A stretch of DNA of 33,556 nt from Candidatus Portnoybacteria bacterium RBG_19FT_COMBO_36_7 (GTDB taxonomy: Bacteria > Patescibacteriota > Minisyncoccia > Portnoybacterales > GWB1-42-6). This document shows positions 2,051 to 27,098 of the stretch, piece by piece. The stretch covers positions 1 through 33,556 of the forward strand of contig MHMW01000030.1 of NCBI GenBank assembly GCA_001819495.1, in the 5' to 3' direction. The notes beneath the pieces are model-generated. The model saw only the letters and a list, made by a program, of their open reading frames with translations, searched no databases and was not told the origin of the DNA. Position 1 is the stretch's first letter. Each line of letters starts with the position of its first letter. Position numbers and translations under genes: made by a program.

Positions 2051-2710
2051 ATGGAAATAACAATTTCGGAAAATTTAAGAGATAGGCATAAGAACGTCCA
2101 GCTGGCAATGCTCATTATAAGAGACGCGCAGAACAAGGAATTTGACGAGCGGCTGGAAAAAGAAAAAAGAGTTATTGAGCAGTATATCAGGGAAACTTAT
2201 AAGGCAGGAATTGAAAATGTAGGCCTTCTTAAAAAATACAACGATTATTATTTTGAGTTCAATGAAAATTATCCGGTTAAGAAACAAATGAAATCAATTT
2301 TGGAAGGAAAAGAAATTCCTAATATCCTGTGTCTGGTTGACGCGATGTATATGACGGAATTAAAATACGGGTGCCTTGCTGCCGGGCATGATTTGGATGC
2401 GATACAGGGAAATTTGACTTTAGATATTGCTCAAGAAGGGGAGATTTATATAAAAATAAACGATGAAGAACAGGAAGTCAAAAAAGACGATATAGTGATG
2501 CGCGATAACAGCGGAATTATTGCCAGCGTTCTTTTCGGCCCGGATAACCGGACAAAAATAATTCCGATCTCAAAAAATATAATCTATATCGCCTATTTTC
2601 CGTTCTTGGTGCGCAGGAGCGAGAAAATTACGATAATAGCCGATCTGGCCAGGCTTTTGCGAATCTGCGAAGGCCCTCACGCCAAGATAGAAAGAATGGG
2701 ATTTTATTAG
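2051..2710 (+). CDS. Stand-alone B3/B4 (PheRS-beta editing-like) domain protein
   Basis: LVDAMYMTELKYG, AGHDLDAIQG and DDIVMRDNSGII...GP...RTKI segments resemble B3/B4 family proteins; recognised by eye. Confidence 0.75.
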   Translation: MEITISENLRDRHKNVQLAMLIIRDAQNKEFDERLEKEKRVIEQYIRETYKAGIENVGLLKKYNDYYFEFNENYPVKKQMKSILEGKEIPNILCLVDAMYMTELKYGCLAAGHDLDAIQGNLTLDIAQEGEIYIKINDEEQEVKKDDIVMRDNSGIIASVLFGPDNRTKIIPISKNIIYIAYFPFLVRRSEKITIIADLARLLRICEGPHAKIERMGFY

Positions 2711-2721
2711 TTCATATATTT

Positions 2722-3558
2722 ATGTTAATAGACACTCACGCACACGTTAATTTTATTGCTTTTAAAGACGATGGAGACGAAGTGATAAAAATGGCTCTGG
2801 CTTCGGATGTCTGGATGATAAATGTCGGTTCACAATACGACACCAGCCGTCGAGCAGTGCAATATGCCCAGAAATACAAGCAGGGCGTTTATGCTTCAGT
2901 TGCCCTGCACCCTTTTCATCTGAAAGGAAAAAAAATAACAGCGCAGGCAGATCCAAATGAGGTAATTGAATTTGAAACACAGGAAGAAAAATTTGATTAT
3001 CAAAAATATAAAGAATTAGCTTGCCAGCTAAAAGTGGTGGCAATCGGCGAGACCGGCCTGGATTATTATCATCTGGATAAAGGCGAGGAAGAACGCCAGA
3101 AAGTTCTGCAAAAAGAAAGTTTTCTGGGACACTTACAATTGGCTAGGGAGCTGGAAAAACCTTTGATAGTTCATTGCCGCGAAGCCCACACAGATGTTCT
3201 GGCTATTCTAAAAGACTATACGGCCGGGAAGGAAAATGGGTTAGAGGGGACAATCCATTCTTTTTCAGGCAGATGGAGTCAGGCCGAGCAGTATTTGGCG
3301 ATGGGATTTTATCTGAGCTTCAACGGCATTATCACTTTTACGCGCGATTACGATAAGGTGATTAAAAATATGCCGCTGGAACGTTTATTGATAGAGACAG
3401 ATTGTCCTTATTTGGCTCCTGTTCCTTATCGTGGTAAACGCAACGAACCGCTGTTCGTAAAATATGTAGCGGAAAAAATAGCGGAGACAAGAGGAGTTAA
3501 TTTTGAGGAAATAGCAGAGATTACGACTAATAACGCAAAAAAACTATTCAAAATTTGA
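2722..3558 (+). CDS. tatD: TatD family nuclease
   Basis: MLIDTHAH, HP, IGETGLDYY, HCREA, HSF and ETDCPYLAP motifs. Confidence 0.95.
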   Translation: MLIDTHAHVNFIAFKDDGDEVIKMALASDVWMINVGSQYDTSRRAVQYAQKYKQGVYASVALHPFHLKGKKITAQADPNEVIEFETQEEKFDYQKYKELACQLKVVAIGETGLDYYHLDKGEEERQKVLQKESFLGHLQLARELEKPLIVHCREAHTDVLAILKDYTAGKENGLEGTIHSFSGRWSQAEQYLAMGFYLSFNGIITFTRDYDKVIKNMPLERLLIETDCPYLAPVPYRGKRNEPLFVKYVAEKIAETRGVNFEEIAEITTNNAKKLFKI

Positions 3559-9179: not shown

Positions 9180-9255
9180 ATTGTGCCCGAGGAGGAAGTT
9201 GCTTTAAACTATGCGCTTGGCGCAAGTACGGGGTAAAAACTCTCATGGATATATG

Positions 9256-9339
9256 TGCCGCGGGAGGGATTTGAACCCTCACGGTCTTTCGACCAGTGGT
9301 TTTTGAGACCACCCTGTATACCAGCTCCAGCACCGCGGC
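9256..9339 (-). tRNA. tRNA-Leu (CAA), CCA not encoded
   Basis: Reverse complement folds as a cloverleaf: acceptor GCCGCGG/CCGCGGC plus discriminator A, anticodon arm GTGGT-CTCAAAA-ACCAC, long variable arm, GTTCAAAT T-loop. Confidence 0.95.
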
Positions 9340-18462: not shown

Positions 18463-18948
18463 ATGAACGCTAAGGAAAGAAAAGCTCTTTTGTTGTTTCT
18501 TTTTTGGGCGAGACAGAACCACGGCTATGCCAGCGGTGTTAAAGGTACGAAATTGGCAAAGAGTGGCAGTGAGTTTAGATGCAGCTGTAAAAAATTTTCT
18601 TACCGGGACCAAGTTTGGTGCGAAGACCCTTTTATCGGCCAGGAGATGGTTAGCCACGATGATCAAGGTTGGATTTGGGGGATGAATTATTATGGCCGAA
18701 CGTTAAAGAGCAATCAGAAAGTTAAAAGAGATGCAATATTCGCATTTCTGAGATCCGCTTTAATGGAGTGCAACAAGAAGTGGCCACATCGGGGTCCTAA
18801 AATGGTCATCCAAGGAGTCTGGGTCTATGAAAATGAACGCGATATAATAGGCAGCCTCGATAATTTTTGCGGCACTGAAAAGATTTTTTACAAAGGCGTA
18901 CTAGTCTATCGGGGTGAATACCATGGAGGAATCATTAGCGGAGATTAG
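18463..18948 (+). CDS. DUF5680-like protein
   Basis: YRD......F.GQE.V.....W.MNYYG...F.G.E.I......VY...YHGG pattern recognised by eye; strong GAGGAGGGG SD. Confidence 0.75.
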   Translation: MNAKERKALLLFLFWARQNHGYASGVKGTKLAKSGSEFRCSCKKFSYRDQVWCEDPFIGQEMVSHDDQGWIWGMNYYGRTLKSNQKVKRDAIFAFLRSALMECNKKWPHRGPKMVIQGVWVYENERDIIGSLDNFCGTEKIFYKGVLVYRGEYHGGIISGD

Positions 18949-19004: not shown

Positions 19005-20978
19005 TTTCTTCATTTCCTCAACCGCCTCATTCAGCATCTGAACGTAGAGGTTAAGTCCGACGGCGTTGATTGAGCCGGATTGTTCGCGGCCCAAAATATT
19101 TCCGGCGCCGCGGATTTCCAGGTCCCGCAGGGCGATCTGGTAGCCGGAACCAAGAGCTTCTGCTTCTTTGAGCGCGTCAAGACGCTGGCGGGCAATTTCG
19201 GTCAGATTTTTGGCGTTGTACAAAAAGTAAGCGTATGCCTGTCTGTCGGAACGGCCGATCCGGCCGCGCAGCTGATAACTTTGGGCCAGGCCAAGCTTTG
19301 TCGCGTAGGCCACTATTAGAGTATTGACGTTCGGGAAATCCAGGCCGTTCTCAATAATAGTTGTGGCGACCAAAATATCAATTTTGCCGGCGTCAAATTC
19401 ATCCATAACTTTCACTAATTGTTTTTCGTGCATGCGGCCGTGCACGGCGGCAATCCGGGCTTTGGGCGCCAATTTTTTGATCTGTTGCGCGGCCAGCTCA
19501 ATCGTATCAACGCGATTGTGCAGATAATAAATCTGCCCGCCTCTTTTTAATTCCTGTTCAATCGCTTGTTTGACGATTTTATAGGAATGCGGCTGAATGA
19601 ATGTTTTGACCGGCTGGCGGCCGGGCGGCGCGCTCTGAATCAAAGAAATATCGCGCAGGCCAGAAATTGCCAGATGCATTGTTCTTGGTATGGGCGTGGC
19701 GCTCAAGCTTAAGACATCAATCCCGGCGCGCCATTCTTTGAATTTGTCTTTTTGTTTGACGCCAAATCTCTGTTCTTCGTCGATTATCGCTAATCCCGGA
19801 TTGGCAAAATAAACATCTTTTTGGATAAGCCGGTGAGTGCCGATAATAATGTCAATTTTGCCTTCTTTTATTTGTCTGACTGTCTGGCCCTGCTGATTTT
19901 TTGATCCAAGGCGCGAAAGCAAAGCGATATTAACGGGAAATTTTTTGAGGCGTTCTGAAAAAGTATTAAAATGTTGATGGGCCAGAATCGTGGTTGGCGC
20001 GATCATTGCCACTTGTTTATTATCGGCTACTGCTTTGAAAGCCGCGCGCAGAGCCACTTCTGTTTTGCCAAAACCGACATCCCCGCAAATAAGCCTGTCC
20101 ATCGGTTTTTCCGATTCCATGTCATCCTTGACTTCCTGCAGAGCTCTTAGCTGATCGGGGGTTTCAATAAATTGAAAAGAATCTTCCAGTTCTTTTTGCA
20201 GGGCGTCGTCTGAGCCAAATGCAAATCCGCTGGACGATGCTCTTTTAGCGTAAAGCTCAAAAAGCTGGCGCGCCAATTCTATTGCGCCTTCCTTCGCTTT
20301 TCTTTTTGTTTTATACCAGAGCGTGCCGCCGAGCCGATGGACAATCGGCGTTTCAAAACCGATGTAGCGGGAAAGTTTGTTTTCCAGCTCAAGCGGAACA
20401 TAGAGACGGTCGGCTTTTGCGTACTCCAAAACAAAATATTTTTCAGGACTGTCGGGATTGGGCGGGCTGAAGGAAAGTTGGCCGCCCAGTTCATCTGCGT
20501 AGCCCCTGAAAATCCCGATACCGTGGTCAAGGTGGACCAGGTATTCGCCGGGTTTTAAATTGCTCAGAAGCAATTGGGGGGTTCGGCTTAGAAGCTCTTT
20601 TTTTATTTCTTTTTTGAGAACTTTTATTTCAAGCCCGTAGATTTCTGCGATTTTATTGCCTGAAAATTCCAGGCGGTATGCTGTTTTCTCGTTTATCGCA
20701 AATATATCCAAAATCCCGCCGCGGTGGGAAATTTCTCCTTTTGAGCCAAGAGTCTGGACCCGCTCGTAACCAAATTCAGTTAAGCGGCGTAATAGTTCAA
20801 AGAGATTTGTTTTCTGGTCTTTTTCAAGAAAGAGCGTATTTTCTTTCCACCAGACCTGCGATTTGGCGATTTTTTCTATCTTCTGTAAATTTTGTGAGAA
20901 CCACGAATAATCCCGCTCTAAAAAATAGGGGGTTAGGCTGGCAATTAGGATTTTTCCTTTCACTCTTGACAACTGCAT
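19002..20978 (-). CDS. mfd: Transcription-repair coupling factor, shortened (UvrB-homology remnant, RID, translocase; no C-terminal D7 domain)
   Basis: RGGILDIF, VHLDHGIG, ETPDQ, GDVGFGKTEV, DEEQRFG, SATPIPRT, QLRGRIGR and DLEIRGAGNILG; ends shortly after GLNLYVQML. True start may be GTG at 20963. Confidence 0.93.
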   Translation of the reverse strand: MQLSRVKGKILIASLTPYFLERDYSWFSQNLQKIEKIAKSQVWWKENTLFLEKDQKTNLFELLRRLTEFGYERVQTLGSKGEISHRGGILDIFAINEKTAYRLEFSGNKIAEIYGLEIKVLKKEIKKELLSRTPQLLLSNLKPGEYLVHLDHGIGIFRGYADELGGQLSFSPPNPDSPEKYFVLEYAKADRLYVPLELENKLSRYIGFETPIVHRLGGTLWYKTKRKAKEGAIELARQLFELYAKRASSSGFAFGSDDALQKELEDSFQFIETPDQLRALQEVKDDMESEKPMDRLICGDVGFGKTEVALRAAFKAVADNKQVAMIAPTTILAHQHFNTFSERLKKFPVNIALLSRLGSKNQQGQTVRQIKEGKIDIIIGTHRLIQKDVYFANPGLAIIDEEQRFGVKQKDKFKEWRAGIDVLSLSATPIPRTMHLAISGLRDISLIQSAPPGRQPVKTFIQPHSYKIVKQAIEQELKRGGQIYYLHNRVDTIELAAQQIKKLAPKARIAAVHGRMHEKQLVKVMDEFDAGKIDILVATTIIENGLDFPNVNTLIVAYATKLGLAQSYQLRGRIGRSDRQAYAYFLYNAKNLTEIARQRLDALKEAEALGSGYQIALRDLEIRGAGNILGREQSGSINAVGLNLYVQMLNEAVEEMKK

Positions 20979-20995
20979 CTGTGCTTATGTATGAT
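20966..20995 (+). promoter_or_regulatory. Sigma70-type promoter for the structured RNA and small genes
   Basis: TTGACA-18-TATGAT. Confidence 0.6.
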
Positions 20996-21020
20996 AGCGT
21001 ATTCTAAAGGAAGAAGTCAA

Positions 21021-21164
21021 AAATGCCGTCCAGCATCCTATCTGTGAGTGGCCAAAGCTAAGACAATCCCTCCTAACGTCTTGGCGAGTAGCCGAAGTAT
21101 CAGGGGTGTCCTGCATTTGCGGGATTATCCCTGACGCTCGCAGGTAGGATTTTGGACGGCATTT
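21021..21164 (+). ncRNA. Candidate structured ncRNA or leader (three-way junction), class unknown
   Basis: 12-bp plus 16-bp closing stem, two daughter hairpins, about 7 G-U pairs that work only on the plus strand, upstream promoter and downstream U-rich tract. Confidence 0.7.
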
Positions 21165-21215
21165 GTTTGTAAAAGTTATTTTCAAATTAAATATTGAATA
21201 CAAAAGGAGGAGAAT

Positions 21216-21410
21216 ATGTCTGATTTGATGGCAGGATTGGTATTTTTGGTCGGGGCGGCGGCAGTTTGGTTTATGCCGGCATTATCATTTATCAGCGTCA
21301 GAAGATCGTCGGTTTTATACGGCGTTTTAATGATTCAGGCAGCGGCGACGCTTATTTTTTTGGTTATCGGCATAACATTGGTTTGTTTATTTTCTGGAAC
21401 AAAAATATAA
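21216..21410 (+). CDS. Small two-TM membrane protein (64 aa)
   Basis: AAGGAGG SD; two hydrophobic segments separated by SVRRSS. Confidence 0.7.
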   Translation: MSDLMAGLVFLVGAAAVWFMPALSFISVRRSSVLYGVLMIQAAATLIFLVIGITLVCLFSGTKI

Positions 21411-21478: not shown

Positions 21479-21835
21479 ATGGCAAAAAAATTTAAGAAAT
21501 GTCAGGCAGACGGCTGTGGAAAGTTCTTGAATTCATACAACAAAATCGGTTTTTGTTCTTTACATATTGACGGGCCGGCAAAAAAGATTTTCGTTGCCTT
21601 TACTAAAGGCCGGCGATCCGAGGCATGCCTCTGCTGGTGGGGAGACAAGGAAAGCATTTTGAAAGATTATCGTTCCTGTATAGAGATTACGGTTACCGGC
21701 AGACATTATTTTTATTTGAAAAAAATGGCTGCTTTATTGGACCGCTTGGAACCGGTGCTTGGCAGTACTTTTCTTTCAGTAGATATTCCCGATATGCTTT
21801 TGAGGGCATTTAAAAGAAATCCCCAAAAAATTTAA
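21479..21835 (+). CDS. Hypothetical protein with putative N-terminal Zn-binding motif (118 aa)
   Basis: AAAGGAG SD before ATG 21479; C-x4-C...C-x2-H (CQADGC...CSLH); terminator follows. Confidence 0.7.
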   Translation: MAKKFKKCQADGCGKFLNSYNKIGFCSLHIDGPAKKIFVAFTKGRRSEACLCWWGDKESILKDYRSCIEITVTGRHYFYLKKMAALLDRLEPVLGSTFLSVDIPDMLLRAFKRNPQKI

Positions 21836-26815: not shown

Positions 26816-26834
26816 CGAAAGGAGGTTGATTTAG

Positions 26835-27098
26835 TTGGCTATTGAAGTAAGAAAAAAAGATAAAGAATCAACAGGGTCGCTTTTGCGACGTTTCAGCCGC
26901 CGTGTTCAGCAGAGCGGTGTTTTGCTGCGCGCCAGACGCGTCAGGTTTTTTCAAAAAGAAAAGACAAAGCGCCAGGTAAAAGCAAGCGCCCTTCGGCGCC
27001 AGGAGCTTCGCAAACAGAGAGTGCATCTTTTGAAGCTGGGACTTATTGAAGAAGGAGAAATGATACCAAAAGATAAAATAAAACTTAAAAAGCGCTAA
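26835..27098 (+). CDS. rpsU: 30S ribosomal protein bS21 with C-terminal extension
   Basis: IEV.K...ES..SLLRRF...V..SG.L..AR...FF.K pattern; TTG start with AAAGGAGGT SD at 26818-26826. Confidence 0.9.
   Translation: MAIEVRKKDKESTGSLLRRFSRRVQQSGVLLRARRVRFFQKEKTKRQVKASALRRQELRKQRVHLLKLGLIEEGEMIPKDKIKLKKR

Follow-up and report, generated by a model that had tools for sequence, protein, structure and literature searches.

We describe a structured small RNA (sRNA) encoded between pth and mfd on a contig of Candidatus Portnoybacteria bacterium RBG_19FT_COMBO_36_7 (GenBank assembly GCA_001819495.1, contig MHMW01000030.1; its positions 1 to 33,556, the whole stretch of DNA that was analyzed, are referred to below as the window). 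There is good support for assigning this RNA to a new, previously uncatalogued family of structured sRNAs, for which we gathered 64 distinct members and two distant, expanded variants. In the predicted structures, the most conserved single-stranded element of the RNA is a hairpin loop containing CCCUCCU, a copy of the core of 16S rRNA's anti-Shine-Dalgarno (ASD) sequence. An earlier note on this DNA had proposed a promoter-driven, Y-shaped RNA that displays such a loop and controls genes led by a Shine-Dalgarno (SD) sequence. The RNA, its strand, and its loop are all borne out by comparison with homologues and, judging from sequence features, the RNA probably acts on the start of translation.

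Homologues were collected by three routes: synteny around relatives of Mfd; a single metagenome scan with a pattern consisting only of the two strands of the inner part of the closing helix P1 (TATCTGYGAGTRG N{68,98} CTYRCAGRTAGR), from which the loop was deliberately excluded; and profile searches. The pattern scan returned 69 loci, which gave the 64 distinct RNAs once merged with the synteny set, and the profile searches added L018 and L092, the two expanded variants. The RNA is present once in each positive locus. A shared structure is supported by compensatory change. Among 62 sequences in a model-based alignment, standard pairs account for 94% of cells, versus 34-48% when the partners are slid by one to three columns, and 433 cells have changed on both sides, versus 155 +/- 14 in shuffles. 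Covariation is seen in 27 of 38 pairs, among them 15 in P1 and every pair modelled in P2 and in lower P3, and the short helix at the base of the P2 arm alternates between GGC/GCC, AGC/GCU, and AGU/ACU. Covariance-model scores at the same loci are 89-140 bits for the sense strand and 23-59 bits for the antisense strand, and the conserved U.G pairs of inner P1 would be A-C mismatches on the opposite strand. The element is an RNA read from the plus strand, as the earlier note had argued from G-U pairs in the window copy.

That copy folds into a Y with a minimum free energy (MFE) of -84.4 kcal/mol (positions 21002-21185, plus strand), compared with -47.0 +/- 4.1 kcal/mol for 200 dinucleotide shuffles (z = -9.2; none as good), and the antisense strand folds less well, at -65.6 kcal/mol (z = -5.8), ~19 kcal/mol above the plus strand. 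Its helices lie where they had been proposed (Table 1), with two amendments. P1 is indeed a two-part helix, but position 21050, which had been taken as the end of its inner part, belongs to the separate 3-bp helix at the base of the P2 arm; and the plus-strand fold contains G.U pairs as claimed, with a count of eight rather than about seven. At the three-way junction the 3' side is a single unpaired nucleotide (21135 in the MFE fold), P3 stacks on P1, and the structured arm is on the 5' side. The internal loop under P2 places CAA opposite AGUA in the window and GAA opposite AGUA in most homologues of group A; the GAA/AGUA version is like the signature of a loop-E/sarcin-ricin (bulged-G) motif, which members of group B lack.

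Although the loop formed no part of the search pattern, every one of the 64 distinct homologues has CCCUCCU in its P2 loop. The heptamer also occurs in L018, L090, and L092, of which the expanded variants L018 and L092 have changed in much else. Its surroundings are constrained as well: position -2 is A in 63 of 64, position -1 is either U or A, and the heptamer is followed by A or U. The loop can be written A-A-U-CCCUCCU-W-W. The heptamer is predicted to be unpaired with a median probability of 0.99, and is open in MFE, consensus, and ensemble structures. The earlier note had singled out the anti-SD-like character of this loop and named conservation of CCUCCU among homologues as a check on it, and both were found; each of its refuting conditions that was checked turned out in favor of the note. 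The canonical E. coli-type 16S tail has the form AUCACCUCCUUU. Loops of group B (AAUCCCUCCUUUAG, that is, AUC-CCUCCU-UU) equal this tail minus one A, with the qualification that the E. coli-type tail may not be that of the host; no 16S gene occurs in the homologue loci examined. A pseudoknot partner for the loop was considered and set aside, because neither candidate is family-wide: the purine-rich 5' leader resembles GGAGG in L014, L023, L056, and L062, and the 3' strand of outer P1 contains GGAGGG in some members of group B.

No known RNA family accounts for these sequences, in agreement with the earlier note. A search of the whole window, at gathering thresholds, with the 4227 covariance models of Rfam 15, which include 6S, SRP, 5S, tmRNA, RNase P, Y RNA/YrlA, RsaE, OLE, riboswitches, and ribozymes, found only tRNA-Leu (anticodon CAA, with a long variable arm, 9255-9339 on the minus strand), which is also the sole ARAGORN match in the window. 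With the threshold relaxed to E <= 10, the sole match in 20850-21350 was a chance SNORD27 hit outside the RNA, and at E <= 5 nothing matched the RNA in 12 homologue loci. A literature search found no description of this RNA. Several familiar RNAs were also compared by their features. The likeness to 6S RNA extends to a consensus promoter, a long closing helix, a length of ~150-200 nt, and an abundant-looking RNA, but the large central bubble is missing, so there is no mimic of an open promoter, and the Rfam 6S model does not match. The RNA of the signal recognition particle (SRP; 4.5S RNA) can be rejected because the P3 loops are AUUU, CUUUUG, or UUUUC, there is neither a GNAR tetraloop nor the GGAA...AGCA motifs, and no SRP model matches. 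5S rRNA is a three-way junction of ~120 nt with a short helix I, whose first arm carries a loop C of CCGAAC type and whose second arm carries loop E. The new family has a ~29-bp closing helix, its loop-E-like motif belongs to the first arm and is confined to group A, and RF00001 does not match. When the consensus was compared by eye with hammerhead-type three-way junctions and the K-turn, these were rejected on topology or for lack of the motifs. A riboswitch or other cis-regulatory leader was rejected on the grounds that the downstream content varies or is absent and that P1, at ~29 bp, is not a short switchable helix.

Protein-coding explanations were likewise rejected. A 12-codon open reading frame (ORF; MPSSILSVSGQS, 21023-21061) starts at an ATG (21023) inside P1 after a purine-rich stretch, but it is probably not a gene, as the majority of homologues have no such ATG and covariation here follows a helix; L014 has a 17-codon counterpart. 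An antisense ORF of 72 aa (20985-21203) is ruled out by the strand asymmetry, and no conserved ORF overlaps the RNA on either strand.

Table 1. Features of the RNA and of related elements in the window.
Feature	Position	Strand	Basis or remarks
Sigma-70-type promoter of the RNA: -35 TTGACA (20966-20971), 18-nt spacer, -10 TATGAT (20990-20995)	20966-20995	+	11/12 consensus positions
Divergent mfd promoter, TTGACT-18-TATCAT	20991-21020	-	Overlaps the -10 and 5' leader of the RNA
Primary transcript (predicted)	21002-21175	+	Short purine-rich 5' leader, core 21021-21164, U-rich 3' tail
Structured core	21021-21164	+	MFE fold
P1, outer part	21021-21033 / 21152-21164	+	13 bp, MFE; strong covariation
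Bulge in 5' strand of P1	21034	+	MFE
P1, inner part	21035-21049 / 21136-21150	+	15 bp; 5' strand AUCCUAUCUGUGAGU, 3' strand GCUCGCAGGUAGGAU; inner 12 bp nearly invariant
Base helix of P2 arm, GGC/GCC	21050-21052 / 21091-21093	+	3 bp, MFE; P2 arm spans 21050-21093
Internal loop below P2, CAAAG / CGAGUA	21050-21056 / 21086-21093 region	+	MFE
P2 stem	21057-21064 / 21078-21085	+	MFE; all 6 modelled pairs covary
P2 loop, AAUCCCUCCUAAC	21065-21077	+	13 nt; heptamer CCCUCCU at 21068-21074
P3 hairpin	21100-21114 / 21119-21134	+	Sequence and length variable; lower 6 pairs covary
U-rich tract, UUUGUUUGUAAAAGUUAUUUUC	21165-21185	+	Directly 3' of P1
SD GGAGGAG (21206-21212) and hydrophobic 64-aa ORF (21216-21410, ATG 21216)	21203-21410	+	No Pfam match; outside the conserved RNA
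rpsU (bS21, 87 aa), TTG start, strong SD GAAAGGAGGUUGA	26835-27098; with SD (GAAAGGAGGTTGA) 26817-27098		SD-led amid SD-less core genes

From its predicted promoter and terminators, the RNA is a stand-alone sRNA gene. The promoter that had been read from the window is well formed, and in ~48 of 60 homologous loci P1 is preceded, at a distance of 10-45 nt, by a sigma-70 promoter that agrees with the consensus at 11 or all 12 positions, many being a perfect TTGACA-16/17-TATAAT; the -10 block GTATGATAGCGTATTCTA is kept in L002, L014, L023, and L056. The predicted start in the window is at ~21002-21004. The U-rich tail (UUUGUUUGU) described previously does come after P1, and P1 combined with this tract is probably an intrinsic terminator, though a leaky one; our terminator scan required a stem with a loop of 3-8 nt, and the combination is thus outside its listing. 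Both the ends of the transcript, which are read off the promoter and the U tract, and its transcription are predictions. A run of U immediately 3' of P1 is found in many homologues of group A, so P1 itself probably ends transcription there. A canonical hairpin-plus-U terminator 3' of the RNA is followed by a convergent pth in at least 11 loci, and in 4 further loci the RNA directly abuts the 3' end of a convergent pth. None of these two sets of loci has a downstream ORF on the strand of the RNA.

The genes of the window (MetRS, LeuRS, TatD, Sua5, ParAB, RelA, TopA, DprA, Mfd, Pth, LytR, LepB, HisRS, bS21, YqeY, YbeY, FtsA, and FtsZ) identify it as the chromosome of a Portnoybacteria-like bacterium of the Candidate Phyla Radiation (CPR). 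The nearest genomes are metagenome-assembled genomes of Candidatus Portnoybacteria and related Patescibacteria, with Mfd 75-86% identical, and the host range of the family is Paceibacteria-type CPR bacteria (Portnoybacteria and relatives). A loop-containing pattern had no match in viral contigs. Both pth and mfd are on the minus strand in the window, with the RNA between them on the plus strand, and the same placement between the two genes holds in L002, L014-L017, L020, and L090 (Mfd 57-83% identical); no copy was found in the stretch examined of L019 and L091. Because pth and mfd are a widespread pair and the RNA sits inside it on the opposite strand, the tight synteny is explained by conservation of the pair, and we read no functional link to pth or mfd from it. 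Expansion of the RNA has occurred in several lineages. L018 (9668-9927, minus strand) is ~260 nt with five hairpins, three of them extra; L092 (5740-5960, minus strand) is ~215 nt and has gained a hairpin as well as paired insertions that make P1 longer; and L016 (9746-9937, minus strand) has an extra hairpin of ~38 nt inserted in P3. None of the three has lost the core of P1, the junction, or the loop with CCCUCCU.

The promoters of the RNA and of mfd are interleaved over 20966-21020: their -10 hexamers (TATGAT and TATCAT) overlap on opposite strands, and each -35 lies within the transcribed leader of the other, so that strong transcription of the sRNA could interfere with initiation at mfd. 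The overlap with the mfd promoter can also explain the conserved GUCAA (GTCAA in DNA) just 5' of P1 in many loci; mfd, counted separately, is the divergent neighbor in most loci with enough upstream sequence. In L002 alone, a 73-nt imperfect hairpin of CTAG-containing repeats (GCGACTAGCAACTAGCCACTAGCGACTAG...; 2686-2760, minus strand) lies between the promoter and P1 and looks like a small mobile or expansion element. In L001 (the end of PEYL01000085), L031, L039, L040, and L043 the assembly breaks off at the RNA's 5' side or no more than ~100 nt from it, which could reflect strain heterogeneity at this intergenic region.

On the other side of the RNA, the slot before pth holds SD-led ORFs in ~35 of 58 loci and none in the remainder. 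These belong to lineage-specific families, are mostly short, and many are hydrophobic; an SD-like motif lies within 120 nt downstream of the RNA in 36 of 58 loci. The ORFs differ among loci (21216-21410 and 21479-21835 in the window; L002, L015, L017, L020, L022, L024, L026, L028, L042, L055, and others), with at least three recurrent families recognizable by eye (MKKFF..., ...GESF..HYFWL..., and MDWIDLGCKIY... types), and neither slot ORF of the window has a Pfam match. The RNA is constant while these ORFs vary, which argues that it is not simply their leader. Read-through could nonetheless make downstream SD-led ORFs cis targets, and the 64-aa ORF at 21216, which is SD-led as the earlier note had said, is possibly either read-through cargo or a cis target of the loop.

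The family occurs in genomes in which SD usage is divided. None of the core genes identified by Pfam in the window (MetRS, LeuRS, ParA, RelA, TopA, Mfd, Pth, LepB, HisRS, and FtsA) has GGAG, GAGG, or AGGA at -18 to -4, consistent with the earlier claim that core genes of this cell do not use SDs. The sequence upstream of core genes (644, 4865(-), 5508, 9407, 10272, 16039(-), 20978(-), 22510(-), 24138, and 28290) is A/T-rich, and in many cases a TATAAT-like box is only ~3-15 nt away from the start codon, which suggests leaderless or very short-leadered mRNAs. A strong SD precedes five ORFs, at 576 (-), 13245 (NUDIX), 18463 (DUF5680), 21216, and 21479, and a few accessory genes bear AGGAGG(G). 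The sequence before the DUF5680 gene (18463-18948), AGGAGGGG, contains the longest perfect complement of the loop among start sites of the window (7 nt, AGGAGGG). The gene for bS21, rpsU, is SD-led amid SD-less core genes. Its SD is kept as GAGGUG (GAGGTG in DNA) in group-A lineages, which indirectly implies a canonical CACCUCC 16S tail in them, whereas rpsU of group B has no SD and is preceded by a G-rich, possibly structured leader (GGGGGAA...CCC). The combination of SD-less core genes with an SD-led rpsU resembles, by analogy, the pattern of bS21 autoregulation in Bacteroidia, where rpsU is the SD-led exception and the ASD is hidden by bS21, bS18, and bS6; in Flavobacterium these three proteins sequester the ASD, and ribosomes without bS21 translate the SD-led rpsU better (PMC7797042, PMC9976891).

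Small RNAs that display an anti-SD or C-rich loop are a known kind; RNAIII, RsaE/RoxS, and LhrC, all of Gram-positive bacteria, use their C-rich loops to pair with SDs. Like the hairpins of Staphylococcus aureus RNAIII, RsaE/RoxS, and Listeria LhrC, the RNA described here has a predicted promoter and terminator of its own and an unpaired, conserved C-rich motif complementary to GGAGG-type sites, and it would act without sequence-specific antisense overlap, target pairing being in this case a proposal. It differs from them in having no sequence or structure homology (no Rfam match), one loop with an exact 7-nt ASD core in place of several UCCC motifs, a ~29-bp closing helix with an invariant inner segment, and CPR hosts with SD-less core genes. 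It shares with the 16S 3' tail itself the CCUCCU core with A/U-rich flanks, in a host with a Bacteroidia-like SD-less core and an SD-led rpsU; unlike the tail, the motif is in a hairpin loop of a 145-nt RNA and not at a free 3' end, with C and not A on the 5' side of CCUCC. OLE RNA, of ~600 nt and found in Bacillota, carries a CCUCCU mimic of the ASD in P6 that is bound by bS21, with matching phenotypes, and that is base-paired to an SD-like strand (PMC12054373). Both are non-ribosomal RNAs with a CCUCCU identical to the 16S anti-SD core and thus with a route to translation initiation via bS21, but here the motif is in an open loop and not in an SD-ASD duplex, there is no sequence relation (no OLE match), and binding of bS21 is hypothetical. 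As conserved, covarying RNAs of orphan function that are confined to one lineage and flanked by promoter and terminator, Bacteroidales-1, Chlorobi-1, and Acido-Lenti-1 (Weinberg et al. 2010, PMC2864571) are comparable, but the present family belongs to a CPR lineage, has another fold, and offers in one loop an explicit mechanistic lead.

An SD-targeting interpretation is plausible on these features, and the reading that we favor, with a probability of about 0.4, is that the loop pairs with GGAGG-type SDs both in trans and, on read-through transcripts, in cis. The RNA would be strongly transcribed from the pth-mfd intergenic region as a molecule of ~145-170 nt, and its long closing helix and three-way junction would hold out the 13-nt loop. 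The exposed CCCUCCU would then base-pair with GGAGG-type SD elements: in trans with those of the minority of SD-led mRNAs, and in cis, when transcription reads through, with those of the SD-led small ORFs often found just downstream. Pairing would keep ribosomes off SD-led mRNAs, in a cell where initiation on core genes does not use SDs. We favor this reading because the seed is accessible and invariant, the promoters are strong, SD-led genes are few, and SD-led neighbors are frequent. Several points weigh against it. GGAGG-type SDs on the downstream ORF are enriched only about twofold over a rough background estimate, and no preference for the loop-specific GGAGGG is seen among SDs of ~670 kb of related DNA, where GGAGG is followed by G in 35 cases, by A in 34, by T in 33, and by C in 26. 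A loop with the ASD specificity of the ribosome would bind every SD, that of rpsU included, and specific regulation by it would be hard to picture. Further, a simple antisense seed does not explain the nearly invariant 12-bp inner P1 and junction, which look more like a surface for protein recognition; near-invariance of these 12 bp was partly imposed by the search pattern, and the conservation is also seen in the synteny-derived set and in L018, which are free of this bias.

A comparably good alternative, which we hold more tentatively, is that the RNA is a decoy for proteins, a mimic of the 16S 3' tail that would bind bS21, with or without bS18 and bS6, and by titrating them set the number of ribosomes that see SDs, with inner P1 and the junction as the remaining surface. 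An invariant-sequence helix plus loop suits recognition by protein, and the Bacteroidia-like pattern of the host, with SD-less core genes but a strong SD and a TTG start on rpsU and conservation of GAGGUG across group-A lineages, fits the idea; so do the accounts of ASD sequestration by bS21, bS18, and bS6 in Flavobacterium (PMC7797042, PMC9976891) and binding of the OLE mimic by bS21 (PMC12054373). However, the OLE mimic is paired with an SD-like strand whereas the motif here is single-stranded, group-B lineages retain the RNA though their rpsU has no SD, and the base 5' of CCUCC is C in the loop and A in the inferred 16S tail. Somewhat more doubtful is a housekeeping or other ribonucleoprotein RNA, the loop of which would pair with another stable RNA or bind a KH-type or other C-rich-binding protein, its resemblance to the ASD being incidental. 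Such a role would be in keeping with the fixed position among housekeeping genes across Pth identities down to ~37-45%, the consensus promoters, the invariant helix, and lineage-specific expansions of helices as in RNase P, SRP, and 6S RNAs, but it would be a pointed coincidence for 7 nt to equal the ASD core exactly, between ASD-like flanks and in a genome poor in SDs; no candidate partner was identified; and two related genomes (L019 and L091) lack the RNA at this locus, although a copy could be present elsewhere.

The earlier note had allowed for action in cis, and the position of short, hydrophobic SD-led ORFs, often 20-60 nt away with no obvious terminator between, would suit a pure 5' leader that sequesters SDs or resembles that of a type I toxin; in the window, 6 bp are possible between the loop and AGGAGG (21205-21210), which is part of the SD region of the ORF that follows. 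As the sole role this is improbable and largely refuted, because the loci with a terminator right after the RNA, and those in which it abuts pth, have no ORF for it to lead, the ORFs elsewhere are of different lineage-specific families while the RNA is constant, and the RNA is far better conserved than any of them. Least credible of all is that there is no RNA gene here and that the sequence is a palindrome acting as DNA (to terminate transcription in both directions or to insulate pth from mfd, or as a site of recombination) or folds by chance. An intergenic position and an antisense strand that also folds better than chance are what such an element might show, but this reading is already contradicted by G.U pairs that the other strand would present as mismatches, a gap of 60-100 bits between sense and antisense models, a dedicated consensus promoter reading into the RNA, and the invariant single-stranded loop.

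CPR bacteria, or Patescibacteria, are ultra-small and make up a large and barely cultivated share of bacterial diversity, and a literature search returned nothing describing their non-coding RNAs. The family reported here is a new one with a clear experimental handle, a single invariant loop identical to the anti-SD core, and it occurs where SDs are missing from core genes but lead accessory genes and rpsU. Should the loop act on SDs or on bS21, the family would link the organization of SD-independent initiation outside Bacteroidia with the question of why OLE and other non-ribosomal RNAs carry anti-SD mimics. A bolder and rather unlikely proposal is that an abundant, trans-acting mimic of the anti-SD tail of the ribosome determines whether messages with an SD are translated in bacteria whose initiation is otherwise SD-independent. 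It would do so by sequestering the mRNAs that bear an SD or, alternatively, by titrating bS21 and further proteins of the platform that conceal the 16S tail. Were this true, the RNA would be a switch between SD-blind and SD-responsive translation, a regulatory layer that, to our knowledge, has not been described in any organism. Whatever the function, the covariance model can improve annotation of these genomes, and the pth-mfd locus provides a fixed place to look.

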